DNA of 64,000 nt from an uncultured Gammaproteobacteria bacterium. GTDB lineage: Bacteria > Patescibacteriota > Microgenomatia > Levybacterales > GWA1-39-11. Shown here in pieces: positions 3,419 to 56,474 of the stretch; the stretch's first letter is position 1, and each line of letters begins with the position of its first letter. Where the stretch lies: positions 459,060-523,059 of the forward strand of contig CAYRKM010000001.1 in the NCBI GenBank assembly GCA_964425075.1, given 5' to 3'. A model generated the notes under the pieces. That model searched no databases, was not told the origin of the DNA, and saw only the letters and a program-made list of their open reading frames with translations. The translations under genes and the position numbers were made by a program.

Positions 3419-4948
3419 ATGATTGTAATTATAGACTTTGGCTCCCAAACAACACATCTAATCGCAAGAAGGATAAAGGATCTCGGTGTTCCTGTGAATA
3501 TTATTCCTCCTCAAAAAACCCGCTCAGTTTTTCTCCAAGAACCATCAGGAATTATTCTCTCAGGTGGACCGGCCTCTGTATATGAAAATGGAGCACCAAG
3601 TATCGATCCGTCTATTTTTTCATTAGGAATACCGGTTCTTGGAATTTGTTATGGCTTACAACTCATGGCGCAGCTTAATGGAGGAAAAGTGGTTCCGGGG
3701 CGCAAAGAATACGGTCCGGCAACAGTTAGCTTAACAACAAAATCAGACGGCGTGATGTTTGCAAAAAATCTACCTAGCTCTTTTACAGTTTGGATGAGTC
3801 ATGGGGATGAAATAGTAAAAATGCCGATAGGCATGAAAACGCTTGGTAAAACTCCTCATATGAAGTTTGCAATGGTGGGGGATGTGAAGCGAAAAATGTA
3901 TGGACTGCAATTTCACCCGGAGGTAGAACACACTGAATTTGGGATAGAAATTCTAAGAAATTTTTTGGCAGTTTGCAATATAAAAACAGGTTCCCAAACC
4001 ATTTCTCCTTCTCTTCTTGTAAAAAACATTCAAGAAATTGTTGGAGAAAATTATGTAATCGGCGCGGTTTCTGGAGGAGTTGATTCAACTGTTGCTGCTG
4101 TTCTTACCGCAAAGGCAATAGGAGAAAGATTTTTCCCAATTTATGTAGACAACGGACTCATGCGGCCAGACGCTAGGGAGCATGTAGAGAAAATATTTGA
4201 GCATATTGGAATAAAACCAGTGATTGCTGAGGTAAAAGGTGAATTATTGGTTTATCTAAAAGGAGTAACTGATAGTGAGGAAAAAAGAAAAATTATTGGA
4301 AGGCATTATATTCAAGTTTTTGAAAGAGAAATGGAAAAGCTTGAAAAGCGTGGAATTCATCCGCAATTTCTAATGCAAGGGACAATTTATAGTGATGTAA
4401 TTGAGAGTAAAGGGACTAAGCATTCAGCCAATATAAAGTCACACCACAACGTAGGAGGTCTTCCAAAACACATGAAATTGAAATTACTTGAGCCAGTTAG
4501 AGAATTTTATAAAGACGAAGTACGTTCCCTTGGGGAAAAACTTGAGCTTCCAAAATCGTTTGTCCAGAAACAACCTTTTCCCGGACCTGGGTATGCTATA
4601 CGAATAAGAGGCGAAGTTACTCCAAAAAGGCTTGCTATGGAAGAACAGGCGGATACAATTGTCATGGAAGAACTTAAAAAAGCAAAGTTATTGGACAAAA
4701 TATTTATTTCATTTCCGGTGTTAACAGATAGCTATTCGACTGCGGTAAAGGGGGATGGGAGAAGTTTTTCAGAAGTTGTGGCATTAAGAATAGTAGAGTC
4801 AAAAGATGTTATGACTTCTACCTGGGCAAAATTACCGTATGAAGTGTTACAGAGAATGTCGTCTAGAATTGTTAACGAAGTGCCACATGTTTCCCGCGTT
4901 GTGTATGACATTTCCACCAAACCCCCAGCAACGATGGAGTGGGAGTGA
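3419..4948 (+). CDS. guaA: GMP synthase (glutamine-hydrolysing)
   Basis: 509 aa. N-terminal class-I glutamine amidotransferase domain (GICYG), PP-loop SGGVDSTV and a C-terminal GMP synthase dimerisation domain. Confidence 0.92.
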   Translation: MIVIIDFGSQTTHLIARRIKDLGVPVNIIPPQKTRSVFLQEPSGIILSGGPASVYENGAPSIDPSIFSLGIPVLGICYGLQLMAQLNGGKVVPGRKEYGPATVSLTTKSDGVMFAKNLPSSFTVWMSHGDEIVKMPIGMKTLGKTPHMKFAMVGDVKRKMYGLQFHPEVEHTEFGIEILRNFLAVCNIKTGSQTISPSLLVKNIQEIVGENYVIGAVSGGVDSTVAAVLTAKAIGERFFPIYVDNGLMRPDAREHVEKIFEHIGIKPVIAEVKGELLVYLKGVTDSEEKRKIIGRHYIQVFEREMEKLEKRGIHPQFLMQGTIYSDVIESKGTKHSANIKSHHNVGGLPKHMKLKLLEPVREFYKDEVRSLGEKLELPKSFVQKQPFPGPGYAIRIRGEVTPKRLAMEEQADTIVMEELKKAKLLDKIFISFPVLTDSYSTAVKGDGRSFSEVVALRIVESKDVMTSTWAKLPYEVLQRMSSRIVNEVPHVSRVVYDISTKPPATMEWE

Positions 4949-5004: not shown

Positions 5005-5091
5005 ATGCTTAATTTTCTTGGTGAAGCACAGTTGATACTGTGGGGAGCCAAGGCAAGATTAGCACATTGAGTCTGCGGAGGAGGTCTAGCA

Positions 5092-5715
5092 GTGTCAGAC
5101 ATTTCTGAGTACCGAGTCGTTACTCGGGCGGACGTTGCTGCTGCGCTTCGTGAGAAGTTCGGCACCGACAAGGTGGCCTGGTCTATCGAGCCAGGTTCGG
5201 ATGAAGAGGTAAGCCCAGGGACATGGATTGAGGTATTCGTAGCTGATCCACAAGACGGAGACACACTCATTGGTCGAGGGGACAAACGTTTCTTCGATGC
5301 TCGAGTGCGCCGCCGCCCTGAAGGGTATAACCAGTTGGTTCTTTTCGAGGAGCCACAAATCCCCTTCCCTGAGGATGGGCGACCTAGGGTCGTCGGCTAC
5401 ATCCGAGTCTATGTGAATTTCCACGGTTTCGTGAGAACCCGTCAGGAAAACACACTGATCGGCCAGATGCTGATGATCCATCCGAGCTCGGTCTCAAAGG
5501 CCGAGCCCATTCAGGAAGGGGCGAACCTTATCGCCACCATCTACGTCTACACTAATCCACAACGCCTTGAGGGCGCAGTGGAAGTGGACATTCTTCAAAT
5601 GGAATTCCCAGATGAAGATCCGGACGTGATGAAGGTGAGGGAGCTCGTCGTTCTGGGCGCCGATGGGCGGTCGTTGTCCGTGGCCGCGAAACTCATGGCA
5701 TTCACCAACGCCTAG
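5092..5715 (+). CDS. hypothetical protein encoded in a ~60% GC island (GTG start)
   Basis: 207-aa ORF with GTG start and strong SD. Local GC is about 60% against about 35-40% background, and long antisense ORFs (typical of high GC) are present. Shares motif blocks with the 9168 ORF (A-x-R-x5-GY-x3-L-x-L; G-x-RVV-x2-I-x-Y-x-NF). Confidence 0.5.
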   Translation: MSDISEYRVVTRADVAAALREKFGTDKVAWSIEPGSDEEVSPGTWIEVFVADPQDGDTLIGRGDKRFFDARVRRRPEGYNQLVLFEEPQIPFPEDGRPRVVGYIRVYVNFHGFVRTRQENTLIGQMLMIHPSSVSKAEPIQEGANLIATIYVYTNPQRLEGAVEVDILQMEFPDEDPDVMKVRELVVLGADGRSLSVAAKLMAFTNA

Positions 5716-5778
5716 CCAACCCAGCAGACTTTGGGCGTCTCTGAGCTTTACCGCTCAGGGGCGCCCTCCATTCAATAC

Positions 5779-5847: not shown

Positions 5848-7977
5848 ATGGCTGGAACATCACCTCAAACAACACTTACAAAAGACAGAAATGTCGCTTT
5901 GGACAAAATCCGCAATTTTGGGATTATTGCTCACATTGATGCGGGTAAAACCACTACTTCTGAGCGCATTCTTTATTACACAGGAAGAACTTATAAAATT
6001 GGAGAAGTTCATGAAGGAGCTGCAACTATGGACTGGATGGACCAGGAGCGTGAGCGTGGTATCACGATCGTTTCAGCTGCTACTACAACTTTCTGGAAAG
6101 ATTATAGATTTAATCTTATTGATACTCCCGGACACGTTGATTTTACCGCTGAAGTTGAGCGTTCTCTTCGTGTTTTGGATGGTGCTATAACTGTTCTTGA
6201 CGCTGAAGAAGGAGTACAAAGTCAGTCCGAAACTGTTTGGCGCCAGGCTGATAAATACAATGTTCCAAGAATTTGTTTTATTAACAAAATGGACAAACTT
6301 GGAGCAGACTACGAGAAGACCATAAAGTCTGTTATAGAAAGACTTGGTACTAATCCAGTAACAATTGGTCTTCCAATTGGAGCTGAAAATGATTTTAAGG
6401 GAATTTATCACGTATTAGATCAAAAGTCCTACATTTGGTCGGGTGAGGAACTTGGAGCAAAGTTTGAGGTAACAGACGAGGTTCCAGATGGAATGACTGA
6501 AATGGTCAAGAAATACCGCGAGCAGCTTATCGAAAAAATTGCAGAAACAGATGACGTCCTTTTGGAAAAATATCTCAATGGGGAAGAAATTGGATATGAT
6601 GAGTTAAAAGCTGCACTTAGAGCTGCAACAATTGCGTATAAAGTAGTACCAGTTTTTGCAGGAACTTCTTTAAGAAACAAAGGCGTGCAACCATTACTTG
6701 ACGCTGTTATTGATTTCTTGCCCTCTCCTTTTGATCTTAAAACTGTAACAGGAACTAACCCAAAAACCGAACAAGAAGAAACAAGAAATCTTACACCGGA
6801 TGATTCATTTACCGGTTTTGCTTTTAAGGTTCAGGTTGACCCACACGTAGGAAAAATTACATATGTACGTATATACTCTGGAAAAATATCTTCAGGTAGT
6901 TATGCATATAATTCAACAAAAGACATAAAAGAGCGCGTTGGAAGACTTCTTTTGATGCATGCAAATCAAAGGGAAGAAATCAAAGAGGCTTATGCCGGTG
7001 AAATTGTCGCAATTGTAGGATTTAAAGATACTGTTACAGGAGACACGCTATGTGATGAGAGTAAGCCAATCATTCTTCAAAAAATTACATTCAGAGACCC
7101 CGTTATTTCTCTTGCGATTGAGCCAAAGACAAAAAGTGACCAAGAAAAATTGGGAGCTGCTATGAAGAGACTCATGGAAGAAGATCCTACTTTTACAGTC
7201 AAAATGAACCATGAGACTGGACAGACAATTATGTCAGGAGTTGGAGAACTTCAGCTTGAGATTATGGTTGAGAGAATGAAAAGAGAAATGGGAGTTGAGG
7301 CAAATGTTGGAGCGCCTCAGGTTGCATATAAAGAAACAATTAAAGGTAAATCAAATGCTGAATTTAAGTACATCAAACAAACCGGAGGACGTGGTCAATA
7401 CGGTCATGTTCTGATTAATATCGAACCAAAAGGCCGTGGTGAAGGATTTGAATTCGTCAATTCCATTAAGGGTGGAGCAATTCCTGCAGAATTTATCCCA
7501 CCTGTTGAAAAAGGTATAAAAGAGGCTATGGAGCGGGGAGTTGCATTCGGATACCCTGTAGTTGATGTAAGAGTTGAGCTATATGATGGAACTTATCATG
7601 ACGTTGACTCTTCTGAAATTGCATTTAAAATTGCAGGATCCCAGGCTTTTCAAAAGGCGGCCAGAACTGCTCAGGTTACCCTTCTAGAGCCTATTATGAA
7701 GGTAGAGGTAACTACACCTGACGAATTTATGGGAGACGTTATAGGTGACCTGTCAGCAAAAAGAGCTCAAATTTCAGGCAGTGAAGAAAGAGGAAACTCA
7801 AGGATCATATTAGCCCTTGTGCCTCTTGCAGAACTATCAGGCTACATTACTACTTTAAGGTCTTTGACTCAAGGACGTGCCAACGCATACATGGAACCTT
7901 CTCATTATGAAGAGGTGCCTGTACAAATCCAAGAGCAGATTAAGGCAAAATCTAACTTCGTACCCAAAGAAGAATAA
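5848..7977 (+). CDS. fusA: translation elongation factor G
   Basis: 709 aa. G1 motif [18 protein letters not shown], and the full EF-G domain layout through domain V. Confidence 0.93.
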
Positions 7978-34179: not shown

Positions 34180-34215
34180 GTGTAGTGTGCCGGAGAGGGG
34201 AATTCCCCCTCCGGC
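34180..34215. terminator. near-perfect palindromic hairpin between convergent genes
   Basis: gtgccggagagggg-aatt-ccccctccggcac, lying between the stop codons of the 33073 (+) and 34246 (-) genes. Confidence 0.45.
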
Positions 34216-34245
34216 ACAAGATTGTCATCCTGGATTGATCGGTTC

Positions 34246-34965
34246 CTACCGCTTGTTGCCCGTGATTACCCTGGCTCCCGCAACTACCGTCACAGTGGCA
34301 AGAACGAAGAGTAGGGCAACCGCCATGTTCCCGCCCTGATCAGTTGTTCCGGCATTCCCCGTTTTGGGGGGAGCCGGCGTCACCGAAGCCTTCGGCTGCG
34401 GTTGGGTCGTACCCGTTGGCGACGTAATGGTTGGTGAGGGCGTTGCCCCCGTTCCAATCACTACAGTCGCTGTTGGCGTTCCCGTCCGAGTTGGCGTCGC
34501 GGTCGGAGTAGAGGTCGGAGTCGACGTTGGTGTCGAAGTCGGCGTGCTCGTTGGCGTCGCCGTGGGCGTTACAGAAACCACTACCACATCGATGTGGCTG
34601 ATTTCTTGACACTCGCTGCCCGAGAGCAGGCGCGTCACCGTAACTACTTGTGTTCCGATTCCCTCGACCTTGTAGCACCCGTTCTCATAGATGCCGTTTC
34701 CGAGCACGTTGGAATGCTGATTGCCTCCGAACATGCTCGAGCCTGACTTGATGCAGACGCCGCTCACGGTGTTACCGGTCCCGGCATCGTACGTGGCGAC
34801 CGGGTCGCCCTCAATACTCCCAACCACTCCTGTGGTTGTGCCTAGACATGTTGCGGGACTGCCTTGACCGTCGGCCAGGGCAGGCCCTGTTGCCGAGATG
34901 GTAACGTATGCTACCACAGCAGCTACGGCCATGATGGCCAATGCTATGGCAAGGAACTTGTTCAC
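34246..34965 (-). CDS. secreted Cys-containing protein with PT repeats and a C-terminal sorting-signal-like tail, in a ~60% GC island
   Basis: 239 aa with GTG start preceded by GAAGGGAG. Signal peptide, (TPTS)n linker, and a C-terminal PPKTG + hydrophobic helix + RVITGNKR. Local GC is about 60%. Confidence 0.5.
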   Translation of the reverse strand: MNKFLAIALAIMAVAAVVAYVTISATGPALADGQGSPATCLGTTTGVVGSIEGDPVATYDAGTGNTVSGVCIKSGSSMFGGNQHSNVLGNGIYENGCYKVEGIGTQVVTVTRLLSGSECQEISHIDVVVVSVTPTATPTSTPTSTPTSTPTSTPTATPTRTGTPTATVVIGTGATPSPTITSPTGTTQPQPKASVTPAPPKTGNAGTTDQGGNMAVALLFVLATVTVVAGARVITGNKR

Positions 34966-35363
34966 GCTATCTCCCTTCTCTTTGTTTTAGCGTGGTGTCT
35001 ACTTGTTGGCTTATACTTTCCTCCAGGATGTCAATGTGCGTTGATTTCGACCTCATATTCCGATTGCATCCCTGCGTTGGGTGGGTGCTCGAAATCCTCG
35101 AGGCGCTTCACGCCTAACTCTGCGGTCCGTCCCTTGAAGCCTCAAGCGGCTTCTAGATAGACCTAGAGTATGGTATGATTGGGGCAATTATATATAAAAA
35201 TAAGCTCAAAGTCAATATTGTGACGCTTAATCTTAGATCTATATAGTGTATGGATAAAAGGTAAAAATTGTCAGGCATTATATCCTGTAGTTTTTGATTG
35301 CTAGCCTCAGGGCAGTTAATTACACAGCCTCAAAACCAGTTTTTATAAAATGTGGTTTATTTT

Positions 35364-40516: not shown

Positions 40517-40566
40517 TTAGTGATCATTCGCACATTGTAATTTAACTGATTTTTAAATGGTTATGA

Positions 40567-40594
40567 ACCTGCTTTTCGAAAAGCAGGTTTTTTT
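40567..40594 (+). terminator. intrinsic terminator after tuf
   Basis: acctgctttt-cga-aaagcaggt followed by T7. Confidence 0.6.
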
Positions 40595-40613: not shown

Positions 40614-40958
40614 ATGACTATTCAGGCAGAAGCATTAAAAAGATCAAATGAGTTTATAGATAAATCTAGCTTTACGGGAATTGGACAGGAGGTAAAGTGT
40701 GAAACTGGAAAAAGTAGATTCGTATGGTATAGAAATGCTGATTTACGTATACATGATTTTGGAACTGAAGGAAGAACTGGCGCGGTAGGGAATGTAAGAA
40801 TAGGTCCTGTTATTGGTTTGTTTGGGATGAGCGGTGAATCTGGAGATTGGACTTATAATGCTGCTACCGGTGATTTGGCTTTCGAGCTTTTAGAAGGTAA
40901 AGTTGTTGAATTGGATTTAAAAGAAGAGGGTAAAATCAGATTTACACATACACAATAA
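40614..40958 (+). CDS. hypothetical protein between tuf and rpsJ
   Basis: 114-aa ORF with no recognisable domain. Unusual position for a non-ribosomal gene. Confidence 0.35.
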   Translation: MTIQAEALKRSNEFIDKSSFTGIGQEVKCETGKSRFVWYRNADLRIHDFGTEGRTGAVGNVRIGPVIGLFGMSGESGDWTYNAATGDLAFELLEGKVVELDLKEEGKIRFTHTQ

Positions 40959-40967
40959 CATAAAAAT

Positions 40968-41279
40968 ATGGCACAGAAAGGAAGAATAAGAGTAAAATTA
41001 AAGAGCTATGATCCTCGAATCATAGATCAAACATGTCAACAAATCATTGATACGGCCCTTCGTACCGGTGCAAAGGTTGTTGGACCTATTCCATTGCCTT
41101 CAGATAGGACTGTATTTGTAGTAAATAAAGCAGCCTTTATTGATAAAGACGCACGAGAGCATTTTCAGCTCAAAACTCACAAAAGACTCATTGATATTAT
41201 GAATCCAACAGATAGCACTATCGAGAACCTCATTCATCTCGATTTACCTTCAGGGGTAAATGTTGAGATTAAGATGTAG
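40968..41279 (+). CDS. rpsJ: 30S ribosomal protein S10
   Basis: QKIRIKLKSYD-type N-terminus (MAQKGRIRVKLKSYDPRIID), 103 aa. Confidence 0.9.
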   Translation: MAQKGRIRVKLKSYDPRIIDQTCQQIIDTALRTGAKVVGPIPLPSDRTVFVVNKAAFIDKDAREHFQLKTHKRLIDIMNPTDSTIENLIHLDLPSGVNVEIKM

Positions 41280-41922
41280 AATCTGTCTCATTTTGTCTTA
41301 AGAAAATCGTTTTTTTTCTCTTAGTCTCCACCATTTTTTTAACTGCTTCGGGGTTGGGTTGTCTTCCTCTTAGTTTTACACTTATTCTTTGCTTCAGCTC
41401 ATCCGACAGCCCTCTTCCGTAATTTGGATTTTTTTCTCCCTTTAATGCCTCGCTTATTTTTTGTCTAACGCTTTCTGAAAGTGGTTTTCCGTAATTAGCA
41501 TTATTATTTCCACTTGCTGCTTCACTCATACGATTTCTCAGCTCGGGGGTAAATTCTCTTTGGGCATTAGCCTGAGCATGTCTTTCACGCCCATCGGGGC
41601 TAAACTTACCCTTCTCGGGAGGTACAAAGCCCTCAACAAGGAGAGCAGCATAGGGTTCAAGCAATAAGTCAAGCTCACATTCCGTTAGTGGTTCAAGAGC
41701 GGCAAGGTAATTCCCTAAAAGTTGTGGACTTGGTACGCGTTTACCGGTAGAAATAGTTGATATGTAACTGTCGGAGACTTCAAGTTCAACGTGAAGGGAT
41801 TTCAGGGTACGATTGTGCGCTCGAGCAATAGTTGCGAATGCCTTTCCGAATTCTATAGCTTTTGGATGTTTCTCTTTTTCCATACTACGCATTATATTAG
41901 AAGTCTTATAGTAACTCAACAA
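41269..41922 (-). CDS. XRE-type HTH plus NUMOD3-repeat DNA-binding protein (homing-endonuclease-like, no nuclease domain seen)
   Basis: 217 aa. N-terminal HTH (LKSLHVELEVSDSYISTISTGKRVPS). Three NUMOD3-like repeats (TPELRNRMSEAASG, NANYGKPLSESVRQKISEALKG, NPNYGRGLSDELKQRISVKLRG) of the kind found in GIY-YIG/HNH homing endonucleases. No GIY-YIG or HNH motif. Confidence 0.6.
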   Translation of the reverse strand: MLSYYKTSNIMRSMEKEKHPKAIEFGKAFATIARAHNRTLKSLHVELEVSDSYISTISTGKRVPSPQLLGNYLAALEPLTECELDLLLEPYAALLVEGFVPPEKGKFSPDGRERHAQANAQREFTPELRNRMSEAASGNNNANYGKPLSESVRQKISEALKGEKNPNYGRGLSDELKQRISVKLRGRQPNPEAVKKMVETKRKKTIFLRQNETDSTS

Positions 41923-42098
41923 CAGAAAGACAGGTATAAACTCCTTGCATTTGAATTCAAATACGTATATAATAATCCTTACGCAAAATGACGACTTTAA
42001 GGAGGGTTAGTTTGACTACATAAGCTCTAACGGTTAAGGTTTTCTTAATCATCAAAGCGACTGTAGTAGTCGCTTTTTTTGTGGGTTTTAGTTCAAAA

Positions 42099-42148
42099 TA
42101 TACCGACAACTCTTTTGCCAAGCAGAGCTTGTCAGAGACTCTCGGTAT
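42099..42148. repeat. intergenic repeat family B, copy 1 (ataccgacaactct...gagactctcggtat)
   Basis: Same terminal blocks as copies B2-B4 with a different internal hairpin (caagc-aga-gcttg). Overlaps the 5' extension of the tracked rplC ORF. Confidence 0.5.
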
Positions 42149-42173
42149 GTTTTTTAAAACTAGTTTAAAAAAC

Positions 42174-43067
42174 ATGATACAAGCAATATTAGGCAAAAAA
42201 TTGGAACAGACACAAGGATTCCTTCAAAACGGAACACGTATTCCTATGACCAAAATTATGGTTGGGGGAAATGTGGTTTCCCAAATTAAAACCATCGAAA
42301 AAGACGGATATGAAGCTGTTCAACTTGGATTCGGAAATACAAAGAAGGCAGATAAACCAACCCAAGGACACTCAAAAAAAGCGGGGCTCAAAGAGACGCC
42401 TCGTTTTTTTAAGGAAGTAAAGGCTGATAAATTAGAAGGAATTGAAGCGGGAACAGCCATTAATGTAGAAGAAATTTTAGAAGCAGGAGATAGGATTGAT
42501 GTAACTGGAACTTCGAAAGGAAAAGGATATGCAGGAGTAGTCAAAAGACATGGTTTTCATGGAGGACCCAAAACTCATGGTCAGTCAGACCGCCATCGTG
42601 CTCCAGGTTCTATTGGTCAATCTACTACACCAGGACGTGTTTACAAAGGTAAAAAAATGGCAGGTAGAATGGGAAATGAGCAGGTAACTGTTAAGAATCT
42701 TGAGGTTATTGAGGTTAACGGAGAAGAACTTTTAATTAAAGGACTTATCCCTGGTTCAATTGGCTCAATAGTAACAATTACAAGAATTGGAAACAATAAA
42801 AAACATGTAGGTCTTTATCAAGAACCGGTTGCCGAAGAGGTAGTAATAGACGAGAAAAAAGTTGAGGAAGTAGGAGAACCCCTAGTAGAACAAGAAGAAG
42901 CACGGGTTGAGGACGCTGAGGAAGTAAAAGAAGAAATGCAAGCAGAAGCGGCAGCTGAGCAAATTACAGAACCTGCAAAACCTACAGAGGAAGTAAAAAC
43001 AGAAGAAGTAGAGGAGAAAATAGAAGAAGTTAAAGAAGAAACAAAAGAGGAGGAGGAAAAAGCCTAA
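42174..43067 (+). CDS. rplC: 50S ribosomal protein L3 with Glu/Lys-rich C-terminal extension
   Basis: The L3 core starts at MIQAILGKKLEQTQGF (in frame with the tracked ORF from 42081, which would span repeat B1). An ~80-aa acidic/lysine-rich tail follows. Confidence 0.85.
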   Translation: MIQAILGKKLEQTQGFLQNGTRIPMTKIMVGGNVVSQIKTIEKDGYEAVQLGFGNTKKADKPTQGHSKKAGLKETPRFFKEVKADKLEGIEAGTAINVEEILEAGDRIDVTGTSKGKGYAGVVKRHGFHGGPKTHGQSDRHRAPGSIGQSTTPGRVYKGKKMAGRMGNEQVTVKNLEVIEVNGEELLIKGLIPGSIGSIVTITRIGNNKKHVGLYQEPVAEEVVIDEKKVEEVGEPLVEQEEARVEDAEEVKEEMQAEAAAEQITEPAKPTEEVKTEEVEEKIEEVKEETKEEEEKA

Positions 43068-43095: not shown

Positions 43096-43899
43096 GTGAT
43101 TATGGCTGATACAAAAGTTAAAACAATTAAAAAAGTAGCAGCGGTTAAAAAACCAGCTGTTAAAAAAGTTGTGGCAAAAAAAACTACTTCAGTAAATAAA
43201 GTAGCAAAAGCTAAAGAGGCTGTAGTTGTAAAAGAAGCTAAGGTTTCAACCGGTTCTTTGAAAGTTGATGTTATTGGAGCAAATGGTGCAAAGAATGGGA
43301 CTGTTAGCCTTCCAACTGAGTTGTTTGGCATTGTACCTAACAAATCTCTTATAGCTCAAGCTATTCGTGTATATCTTGCAAACCAAAGACAGGGCACTTC
43401 TTCTACAAAAACCAGGGGTCAGGTAAAGGGTTCTACGAGAAAAATTTACCGTCAAAAAGGTACAGGACGAGCAAGACATGGAGCGAACACTGCTCCTATT
43501 TTTGTAGGTGGAGGAATCGCTTTTGGACCTCATCCACGCGACTATTCTTTAAAAATGCCAAAAAAGATGAAAAAGATTGCATTTGCTTCAATCCTTTCTC
43601 AAAAAGCATCAGATGGGGCTATTAAGGTAATTGAGGGAGAATTTAGTGGTAAAACAAAGGATGTTTCAAAGCTACTTAAAACAATGAGTTTGACTAATAA
43701 AACAGGAAAAGCACAGAAAGTGTTATTGGTTATTGGCCAAAATGATAAAAATATCGCAAGGGGAGCACACAATATTGGAGGTTTGTCTATCGAGAGTTCA
43801 GCAACCCTTTCAACCTACCCAGTTTCAATCAGTAAAAATATCATTTTTGTAAAAGACGCGATTAATGATTTAGTTACAAGATATCAAAAAGGAGAATAA
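43096..43899 (+). CDS. rplD: 50S ribosomal protein L4 with Lys/Ala-rich N-terminal extension
   Basis: L4 core (RQGT-STKTRG-V-GS-RK-YRQKGTGRARHG) preceded by a KKVAAVKKPAVKK low-complexity extension. Confidence 0.85.
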   Translation: MIMADTKVKTIKKVAAVKKPAVKKVVAKKTTSVNKVAKAKEAVVVKEAKVSTGSLKVDVIGANGAKNGTVSLPTELFGIVPNKSLIAQAIRVYLANQRQGTSSTKTRGQVKGSTRKIYRQKGTGRARHGANTAPIFVGGGIAFGPHPRDYSLKMPKKMKKIAFASILSQKASDGAIKVIEGEFSGKTKDVSKLLKTMSLTNKTGKAQKVLLVIGQNDKNIARGAHNIGGLSIESSATLSTYPVSISKNIIFVKDAINDLVTRYQKGE

Positions 43900-47486: not shown

Positions 47487-47492
47487 AATTTT

Positions 47493-47550
47493 ATACCGAC
47501 AACTCTTGCTCAAAAAGCCAACTGGCATTTTGAGCTGAGACTCTCGGTAT
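47493..47550. repeat. intergenic repeat family B, copy 2
   Basis: ataccgacaactcttgctcaaaaagccaactggcattttgagctgagactctcggtat. Inner stem gctcaaaa/ttttgagc around the loop agccaactggca. Confidence 0.55.
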
Positions 47551-47618
47551 AAGCAAAGCTTGCGGTTTAGCAATCTAAATTCTCGCCCAAGGACTTAGAT
47601 TTATAAGGAGCTCGAAAT

Positions 47619-56370: not shown

Positions 56371-56375
56371 GTATT

Positions 56376-56434
56376 TATACCGACAACTCTTGTTCAAATA
56401 GCCAACTGGCAATTTGAACTGAGACTCTCGGTAT
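56376..56434. repeat. intergenic repeat family B, copy 4
   Basis: ataccgacaactcttgttcaaatagccaactggcaatttgaactgagactctcggtat. Inner stem gttcaaat/atttgaac co-varies relative to B2. Confidence 0.55.
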
Positions 56435-56474
56435 ATTTAAAAAAAAGGACTTTTATTTATAAAATTTTTTAAAT

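Follow-up and report, generated by a model that had tools for sequence, protein, structure and literature searches.

The stretch of DNA analysed here, hereafter the window, comprises 64,000 nucleotides (nt; positions 459,060 to 523,059 of contig CAYRKM010000001.1, assembly GCA_964425075.1) of an uncultured bacterium that its S10 and EF-Tu proteins place in Levybacteria, a group of the Microgenomates within the Patescibacteria or candidate phyla radiation (CPR); these proteins are up to 95–97% identical to those of metagenome-assembled genomes (MAGs) labelled Levybacteria or Levyibacteriota. Between its ribosomal-protein genes rpsJ and rplC lies a minus-strand gene, the HTH-NUMOD3 gene, whose product joins an N-terminal helix-turn-helix (HTH) domain to a C-terminal array of NUMOD3 repeats. 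The features of the gene and of its flanking neighbours are as follows.

40968..41279, plus strand: rpsJ (S10), PF00338 at 106 bits; left boundary of the slot described below
41269..41279, no strand assigned: convergent 3′-end overlap of rpsJ (plus) and the HTH-NUMOD3 gene (minus), 11 nt, by direct reading
41269..41883, minus strand: HTH-NUMOD3 gene, 204 amino acids (aa) when begun at ATG 41883, as preferred here; the public collection holds an identical protein, P0001
41332..41553, minus strand: three tandem NUMOD3 repeats (aa 111-133, 134-157 and 158-184), from Pfam and alignment
41635..41865, minus strand: predicted N-terminal five-helix XRE/Cro-C1-type HTH domain (aa 7-83), from AlphaFold2 (AF2) and Foldseek
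41695-41805, minus strand: HTH core (aa 27-63)
41891..41919, minus strand: promoter-like element of the HTH-NUMOD3 gene, TTGAGT-17-TATAAT, sigma-70-like with 10/12 consensus matches (consensus scan)
42174..43067, plus strand: rplC (L3), PF00297, starting at ATG 42174 with MIQAILGKK

An earlier sequence-only reading of this DNA had described a 217-aa minus-strand open reading frame (ORF) overlapping the rpsJ stop codon, and the ORF list places it at 41269..41922, between rpsJ and rplC, with the 11-nt overlap as described; the stop codon (41269-41271) sits within the final codons of rpsJ. The longest ORF opens at TTG 41922, which falls within the gene's own promoter, and the public gene call P0001 (207 aa) opens at ATG 41892. 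The true start is most likely ATG 41883, giving 204 aa, as judged from its alignment with the start of a homologue in the related locus L083 (MEKEKHP in the window versus MGKEIHP in L083). The same reading held that the ORF fills the rpsJ–rplC gap. It does lie in the gap, but it covers only about two thirds of the 894 nt, and the remaining 290 nt hold two back-to-back promoters, a conserved rplC leader and a hairpin repeat termed B1. The start of rplC is ATG 42174 and not GTG 42081, in alignment with the L3 start of all relatives.

In the window, 7 nt separate the -10 box of the HTH-NUMOD3 promoter from ATG 41883. The L083 homologue has an aligned promoter (TTGAAA-17-TATAAT, with 12 nt from the -10 box to the ATG), and L084 has a similar arrangement (TTGAAT...TGgTAGAAT, about 15 nt ahead of the ATG). 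No Shine-Dalgarno sequence was seen in any of these three genes. Because the promoter stands so close to the ATG and a Shine-Dalgarno sequence is lacking in the window, L083 and L084 alike, the HTH-NUMOD3 mRNA would be leaderless or near-leaderless. The gene stands alone as a monocistronic unit between rpsJ and the rplC promoter, and neither repeats or operators around it nor terminal repeats of an inserted element were found above chance. Its GC content had been given as about 45%; we measured 42.0% against 36.8 ± 3.9% in segments of the same size, 6% of which are equally high, and the HTH half alone reaches 46%. Elevated GC as a strong signal of foreign origin was rejected, as the ORF is just 1.3 standard deviations over the mean.

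That the protein consists of an XRE-like HTH and three NUMOD3 repeats was borne out by several routes. Pfam NUMOD3 (PF07460) matched over two stretches with 61.8 bits (E 5.7e-17, gathering cut-off 20.4 bits), and the third repeat (FTPELRNRMSEAASG...) is degenerate and aligns with the NUMOD3 repeats of endonuclease homologues. In the same profile searches, HTH_31 (19.7 bits, cut-off 27, E 0.0011) and HTH_3 (15.8 bits, cut-off 23, E 0.015) both stayed below their cut-offs, and GIY-YIG and HNH went unmatched. The AF2 model from the single sequence was unusable, with a predicted local distance difference test (pLDDT) score of 42.7; an alignment of the three family sequences rescued the N-terminal domain only, giving residues 10-90 at pLDDT 81-93 and five helices (10-25, 30-36, 41-48, 56-66 and 71-86). 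Searched against the PDB with Foldseek, this domain matched ClgR, XRE regulators, C.BclI, C.Esp1396I, C.AhdI, SinR and HigA with probability 1.00, and its top matches had template modelling (TM) scores to the target of 0.62-0.85. The N-terminal half is also linked transitively, by phmmer, to P0033 and P0036, which are both confident HTH_3 proteins, and it carries the typical XRE motif 'S-x-S-x-IS-x-IE/S-x-G-K-R-x-PS'. The model thus confirmed a fold of the XRE/Cro-C1 type for the N-terminal domain, though its sequence falls below the Pfam cut-offs. The NUMOD3 half was modelled with low confidence as a string of short helices, which is expected for a module lying along DNA. The predicted protein is all-helical, and the HTH domain and NUMOD3 repeats account for its whole length.

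The sequence-only reading had also seen no recognisable nuclease domain, and we agree: none was detected in Pfam, NCBIfam, PHROGs or PADLOC, or by the fold test. GIY-YIG (PF01541) has no Pfam match, and the closest NUMOD3 homologues have GIY-YIG domains to which the N-terminus does not align. HNH (PF01844/PF13392) and Vsr/DUF559 are likewise without a match in Pfam, PHROGs, NCBIfam and PADLOC, the PHROGs matches being limited to the NUMOD3 segments of homing endonuclease families. The group I intron endonuclease model TIGR01453 scored 33.9 bits against a cut-off of 56.05 and was matched at profile positions 90-175 only, the DNA-binding part. A sequence search of the PDB returned just a marginal match to a designed HTH protein.

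The two halves of the protein differ greatly in how widely they occur. In a word-indexed search with the full protein, only the protein itself was matched at full length, and all other matches spanned the 35-64% of the query that holds the NUMOD3 part. The homologues of this half are GIY-YIG, HNH or Vsr-type endonucleases, in keeping with the kinship to homing endonucleases proposed earlier. An exhaustive HMMER search with the N-terminal 112 residues against 1.84 billion cluster representatives returned seven proteins. Two of these, P0032 (219 aa) and P0035 (239 aa), have the same architecture, with the HTH, a 'TPYxxLL...VPE' helix, 4-5 NUMOD3 repeats and no nuclease; they are 42% (P0032) and 31% (P0035) identical to the window protein over the N-terminal half, and they likewise fall under the HTH_3/HTH_31 cut-offs. 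Full-length identity among the three family members is 28-39%. A full-length profile collected 3,270 NUMOD3 endonucleases and no additional member with the full architecture, and an N-terminal profile search returned the fragment P0031 alone (71 aa, 91% identical to the window protein). The N-terminal profile gave no matches in JGI metagenome contigs or IMG/VR viral contigs, and tblastn against phage GenBank records gave matches limited to the NUMOD3 part of annotated endonucleases. Among some 15 billion proteins, three members of full length and a single fragment were identified; the family is real, conserved in architecture and extremely rare. The combination of XRE-HTH and NUMOD3 is new as a family, built from well-known parts.

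P0032 is encoded in L083, the closest neighbourhood found (S10 97%, EF-Tu 93%, L3 82% and L4 80% identical to the window), where its gene also lies between rpsJ and rplC in the same orientation, adjoining and divergent from the rplC promoter. The window protein and this homologue are about 40% identical, whereas the ribosomal neighbours reach 80-97%, and at about 40% identity the synonymous sites of the pair are saturated. Between the homologue and rpsJ, L083 has a further gene that is absent from the window (6749-7435, plus strand), which encodes a 228-aa S-adenosylmethionine (SAM)-dependent methyltransferase matching Methyltransf_11/25 and UbiE (small-molecule type) and not DNA methylase families. 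Comparing the junction among relatives, we found the HTH-NUMOD3 gene in the window, L083 and the contig L090, and not in L003-L042 or L085-L089, which is the presence/absence pattern of a free-standing homing endonuclease gene. The L3 proteins of gene-less relatives are 76% (L088) and 65-70% (L003-L006, L085-L087, L089) identical to that of the window. Because it is absent from most relatives and is not lineage-wide, the gene is, on this comparison, an accessory insertion. The simplest history would be one acquisition before the window and L083 split, followed by fast divergence. Nearly identical copies in unrelated genomes were not found, and the gene occurs only on this organism's own contigs and in one strain variant; the locus is present in the DNA runs SRR14271370 and SRR14271372.

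The strain variant is L090, a 579-nt contig (ENA ERZ27247817 k141_273587) that is 97% identical to window positions 41536-42084; its quality is uncertain, given its length and a first 30 nt without a match to the window. All nine non-synonymous differences between L090 and the window fall within codons 27-62, the HTH, and codons 63-116 differ by four synonymous changes and no others. The dN/dS ratio is 0.44 over 116 codons, a value that rests on 15 changes in a tiny contig.

The sequence-only reading took rpsJ and rplC as genes that normally abut, so that the insertion would split a conserved operon. This premise does not hold in Levybacteria and other Microgenomates, where the two genes lie between about 150 and over 3,500 nt apart and rplC has its own conserved promoter-like element. 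Across 40 Patescibacteria loci, the spacer ranged from about 150 nt (e.g. L007, L012, L014, L016, L018, L022 and L025) to 3,547 nt. Its cargo, on either strand, includes an EamA transporter, Fic/DOC with HTH, an Asp/Glu racemase, DUF5680, a histidine phosphatase (His_Phos_1), a HAD hydrolase, a P-type ATPase with DUF1599, an FtsJ-type methyltransferase, an aspartyl protease, DUF7736, a plain XRE HTH gene (in L010) and several orphans. The short spacer and the lack of an internal promoter that mark a contiguous S10 operon were not seen in the Levybacteria/Microgenomates relatives. Because of the conserved rplC promoter and leader, and of the variable, unrelated cargo in the spacer, rpsJ/rplC in this lineage looks like a boundary between transcription units and not like an intact operon. 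This lineage has a generic variable slot in the interval from the rpsJ stop to the rplC promoter, and the rpsJ–rplC spacer of Levybacteria/Microgenomates is a hotspot of gene turnover; in the window, the HTH-NUMOD3 gene fills the slot completely.

Two other lineage-specific features touch this gene row. A family of 169-191-aa orphans without a Pfam match occupies the slot in L088 (601-1110), L003 (4377-4952) and L006 (4443-4985), in each case on the minus strand and adjoining the rplC promoter; these relatives lack the HTH-NUMOD3 gene, and the orphan, tested as its diverged relative, proved unrelated. Between tuf and rpsJ, the window holds a 114-aa plus-strand ORF (40614-40958) with no family match and a singleton cluster, a second lineage-specific insertion in the row, as the tuf–rpsJ distance in the closest relatives is just 87-105 nt; a terminator-like hairpin (40565-40590) stands directly after tuf, ahead of this ORF.

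The right end of the slot is formed by the rplC promoter, which is followed by a leader with several distinct parts.

41945..41973, plus strand: rplC promoter-like element, TTGCAT-17-TATAAT, conserved in 20 loci across Microgenomates; right boundary of the slot
41974..42083, plus strand: conserved rplC leader of about 110 nt, with mini-ORF, variable hairpin and terminator-like hairpin with T-run
41988-42023, plus strand: leader mini-ORF of 11 codons, MTTLRRVSLTT*
about 42034-42048, plus strand: variable hairpin of the leader
42054-42083, plus strand: terminator-like GC hairpin and T-run of the leader

The rplC and HTH-NUMOD3 promoters stand back-to-back, with their -35 boxes about 25 nt apart, and the rplC promoter and leader are present at all occupied loci, whatever the cargo. 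Leaders were compared from window positions 41945-42083, L003-L019, L083 and L085-L089. Each of the 17 distinct leaders has an ATG 10-25 nt past the -10 box that starts a mini-ORF, 11 codons long in all but one (9 codons) and closed by a conserved ACA-TAA/TAG/TGA, with one pair showing a stop-to-stop change from TAG to TGA; about 5% of shuffled leaders yield such a mini-ORF. At least 10 different peptides are encoded, including MTTLRRVSLTT, MTYTLEVNFAT, MSKLLIVSMIT and MSKLLMTSLVT. The mini-ORF is followed by the variable hairpin and then by a GCGACT...GTCGC+T7-8 terminator hairpin shortly ahead of rplC. The leader has no match in Rfam at gathering or relaxed thresholds, and RNAalifold supports just the nearly invariant terminator hairpin, with no covariation evidence. 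The arrangement resembles control of the rplC operon by a leader peptide and attenuator, and among CPR bacteria it could represent a new way of controlling ribosomal-protein operons.

The repeat B1, which had been placed directly beside the HTH-NUMOD3 gene, lies about 215 nt from the gene start, beyond both promoters and the leader. It is a hairpin element of about 52-62 nt (TATACCGACAACTCTT...GAGACTCTCGGTATA) with three same-strand copies (42098-42149, 47491-47552 and 56375-56436), each just upstream of a ribosomal-protein gene, namely rplC, the L14 gene (47619) and the S11 gene (56475), against a chance expectation of 0.1. Ahead of rplC, the copy forms an insertion of about 72 nt that separates the leader terminator from the ATG and is absent from L083 and all other relatives.

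We read the HTH-NUMOD3 protein, with moderate confidence, as a nuclease-free, sequence-specific DNA-binding protein, most likely a transcription regulator (autorepressor), and not as an active homing endonuclease; both DNA binding and the regulatory role are predicted. The descriptive points have good support, namely a protein of XRE HTH and NUMOD3 repeats without a nuclease, and an accessory gene in a variable slot with a promoter of its own, back-to-back with that of rplC. The N-terminal XRE/Cro-type HTH, a domain that usually dimerises on a repeat, would read the major groove, and the conserved 'TPYxxLL..VPE' helix would join it to the three NUMOD3 minor-groove helices, the module by which I-TevI, I-HmuI and I-BmoI lie along an extended DNA site. 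The gene is accessory cargo in the slot that separates the end of the tuf-rpsJ unit from the rplC unit, which has a promoter of its own. Its transcription would run divergently from that of rplC, start at a sigma-70-like promoter belonging to the gene itself and yield a leaderless or near-leaderless mRNA. The protein would then bind at or near its own promoter and probably act as an autorepressor, and the back-to-back arrangement of the promoters could let it affect rplC transcription as well. Site-specific cleavage of the gene-less allele is unlikely because any nuclease domain is absent.

The proposed protein has partial counterparts among known systems. NUMOD3 has been described as a minor-groove-binding helix in I-TevI, I-HmuI and I-BmoI, and with these enzymes the window protein shares tandem helices of this kind and an HTH within a modular extended DNA-binding region (PMC3664794). 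I-TevI acts as a transcriptional autorepressor via its DNA-binding domain alone, independent of cleavage (PMC2988022), a role that the window protein may share. It differs from these enzymes in having neither a GIY-YIG or HNH catalytic domain nor a zinc finger, in the position and type of its HTH (N-terminal, five-helix and XRE/Cro-C1 here; small and C-terminal there), and in being encoded on a CPR bacterial chromosome and not in a phage or intron. The likeness to XRE/Cro-C1 regulators such as ClgR, SinR, the C-proteins and HigA extends to the five-helix fold, the motif, the small gene size and a promoter of its own near the start codon, whereas the C-terminal NUMOD3 array replaces their oligomerisation or sensor domain and the sequence lies below the HTH_3/HTH_31 cut-offs. 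Unlike a restriction–modification (R-M) controller (C) protein gene, the window gene has no R-M genes beside it and no C-box-like repeat was seen upstream; unlike that of a HigA-like antitoxin, it is monocistronic, with no partner toxin gene in an operon. CapR offers the same concept, a domesticated endonuclease-derived repressor in a phage satellite (Vibrio cholerae PLE), in which a relative of a homing endonuclease DNA-binding region works as a transcriptional repressor (PMC8096241), as we propose here; it belongs to a different family, related to the T5orf172-type endonuclease domain with a CxxC...CxC motif. The NCBI name 'NUMOD3 domain-containing DNA-binding protein' is generic for proteins recognised by NUMOD3 repeats only; P0010, which bears it, differs from the window protein in having an HNH domain.

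Several observations weigh against an autorepressor. Its operator was not found, as no shared repeat stood out in the two comparable intergenic regions. The position of the L083 homologue is explained equally well by vertical inheritance and so gives no evidence of a functional link with rplC, and most relatives keep this rplC promoter and leader without the HTH-NUMOD3 gene. In the L090 allele, codon 54 reads TAA in place of CAA, and aspartate replaces an invariant glycine of the HTH, so that either the gene is being lost in that strain or the contig is imperfect; in both cases the gene is dispensable, and it may be decaying there. A selfish or decaying element would also look like this in its extreme rarity and fast evolution.

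The strongest of the competing accounts is one that we disfavour as clearly less probable: the gene would be a non-functional, decaying remnant of a free-standing homing endonuclease that homed into the rpsJ–rplC region and then lost its nuclease. T4 seg/mob genes likewise sit between conserved genes, and the endonuclease kinship of all NUMOD3-half homologues, the intergenic position with presence/absence polymorphism among relatives, the low identity to L083 next to 80-97% for the neighbouring genes and the premature stop in L090 would all fit such an origin. Intergenic free-standing endonucleases are well documented, and the T4-like seg/mob genes share with the window gene small size, a place between highly conserved genes, patchy presence and NUMOD3-type repeats (PMC2988022); they differ from it in that the window gene lacks a nuclease, is on a bacterial chromosome, shows no sign of recent spread and occupies a slot that also holds many unrelated non-mobile genes. 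Against decay, the N-terminal half is predicted to be a well-folded XRE HTH domain and not a degraded nuclease, and a nuclease domain fused to this HTH was not found among the 1.8 billion cluster representatives. Three intact ORFs at 28-39% identity keep the HTH, the linker helix, the repeats and the promoter, which implies purifying selection, and the purely synonymous differences in codons 63-116 of L090 point the same way. The sequence-only reading had left a domesticated or decayed endonuclease and a regulator side by side; of these readings, a regulator or domesticated module fits better, since architecture and promoter are kept at 30-42% identity, and the decayed remnant fares worse.

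It is improbable, in our judgement, that the protein is a dedicated regulator of the rplC ribosomal-protein operon which binds between the back-to-back promoters and tunes ribosomal-protein synthesis. The close spacing of the two -35 boxes and the divergent arrangement retained in L083 would suit such a role, yet a minus-strand gene placed at the slot's right end is divergent from rplC by geometry alone, whichever gene it is, and in most relatives that have this promoter and leader, the gene is missing or the unrelated orphan stands in its position (L003, L006, L088). The palindrome TTTGAATTCAAA in the rplC promoter spacer was considered as an operator and rejected, as it is present without the gene and broken in gene-bearing L083, with no correlation between the two. 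The sequence-only reading had suggested a regulator that targeted the ribosomal operon, and nothing shows such targeting.

We also give little credence to a leftover repressor or antitoxin-like XRE protein from a degraded mobile element (prophage, toxin-antitoxin or R-M cassette) that had earlier filled the slot. Among the best structural matches are R-M controller proteins and HigA antitoxins, a methyltransferase gene stands beside the L083 homologue, and a plain XRE HTH gene fills the L010 slot. The L083 methyltransferase is nevertheless of the Methyltransf_11/25, UbiE type and not a DNA methylase, the window gene has no toxin, nuclease, integrase or phage gene beside it, PADLOC finds only generic HTH and endonuclease-fragment matches and no defence-system component, and no relatives were found in phage records or viral contigs. 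That the gene still belongs to a mobile system, as a targeting subunit for a nuclease in trans or as a nuclease with an unrecognised active site, is very improbable: NUMOD3 modules are otherwise almost always attached to nucleases and the same slot is occupied in two diverged genomes, but no nuclease motif or fold was found, the HTH and NUMOD3 parts explain the all-helical protein, the window has no other NUMOD3 or endonuclease gene, and near-identical copies were not found in unrelated genomes.

Should the autorepressor that we favour prove a working regulator, it would be a clean natural case of a homing endonuclease DNA-recognition module reused without its nuclease and joined to a classical repressor domain. 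It would then bear on how parts of selfish elements turn into host regulators, and it would be relevant to programmable DNA-binding scaffolds in which a major-groove reader is paired with an extended minor-groove reader. A more elaborate picture, which we offer as a speculation of low probability, is that a homing endonuclease DNA-binding module fused to an XRE repressor domain was domesticated in a small Levybacteria clade, as a lineage-specific transcription factor that sits between the back-to-back promoters and couples its own expression to the rplC operon, itself under an undescribed leader of 11-codon peptide and terminator. The wider context may matter more, namely that the supposedly invariant rpsJ–rplC junction is a gene-turnover hotspot in Microgenomates.

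Other features of the window stand apart from this gene. An island of 55-67% GC at 34180-35150, in a window of 37% GC, was considered as a large RNA (60% GC, 34.2-35.1 kb) and rejected, as its minus strand reads as a gene whose product is a secreted Thr/Pro-rich protein. The ORF (34246-34965, minus strand, 239 aa) opens with a signal-peptide-like N-terminus, continues through a TPTSTPTS... linker to a hydrophobic anchor at the C-terminus, is followed by a strong hairpin terminator and has no Pfam or Rfam match; it may encode a horizontally acquired surface protein. A second GC-rich island (about 5050-5750, 50-61% GC), flanked by the genes at 3419-4948 and 5848-7977, has no Rfam match below E 0.6, and its ORF (5092-5715) has no Pfam match. 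L4 carries a Lys/Ala/Val-rich N-terminal extension (window 43096-43300), and L3 ends in a long acidic Glu/Lys-rich C-terminal tail (window 42880-43067, ...EEVKTEEVEEKIEEVKEETKEEEEKA) that is common to L088 and L089.

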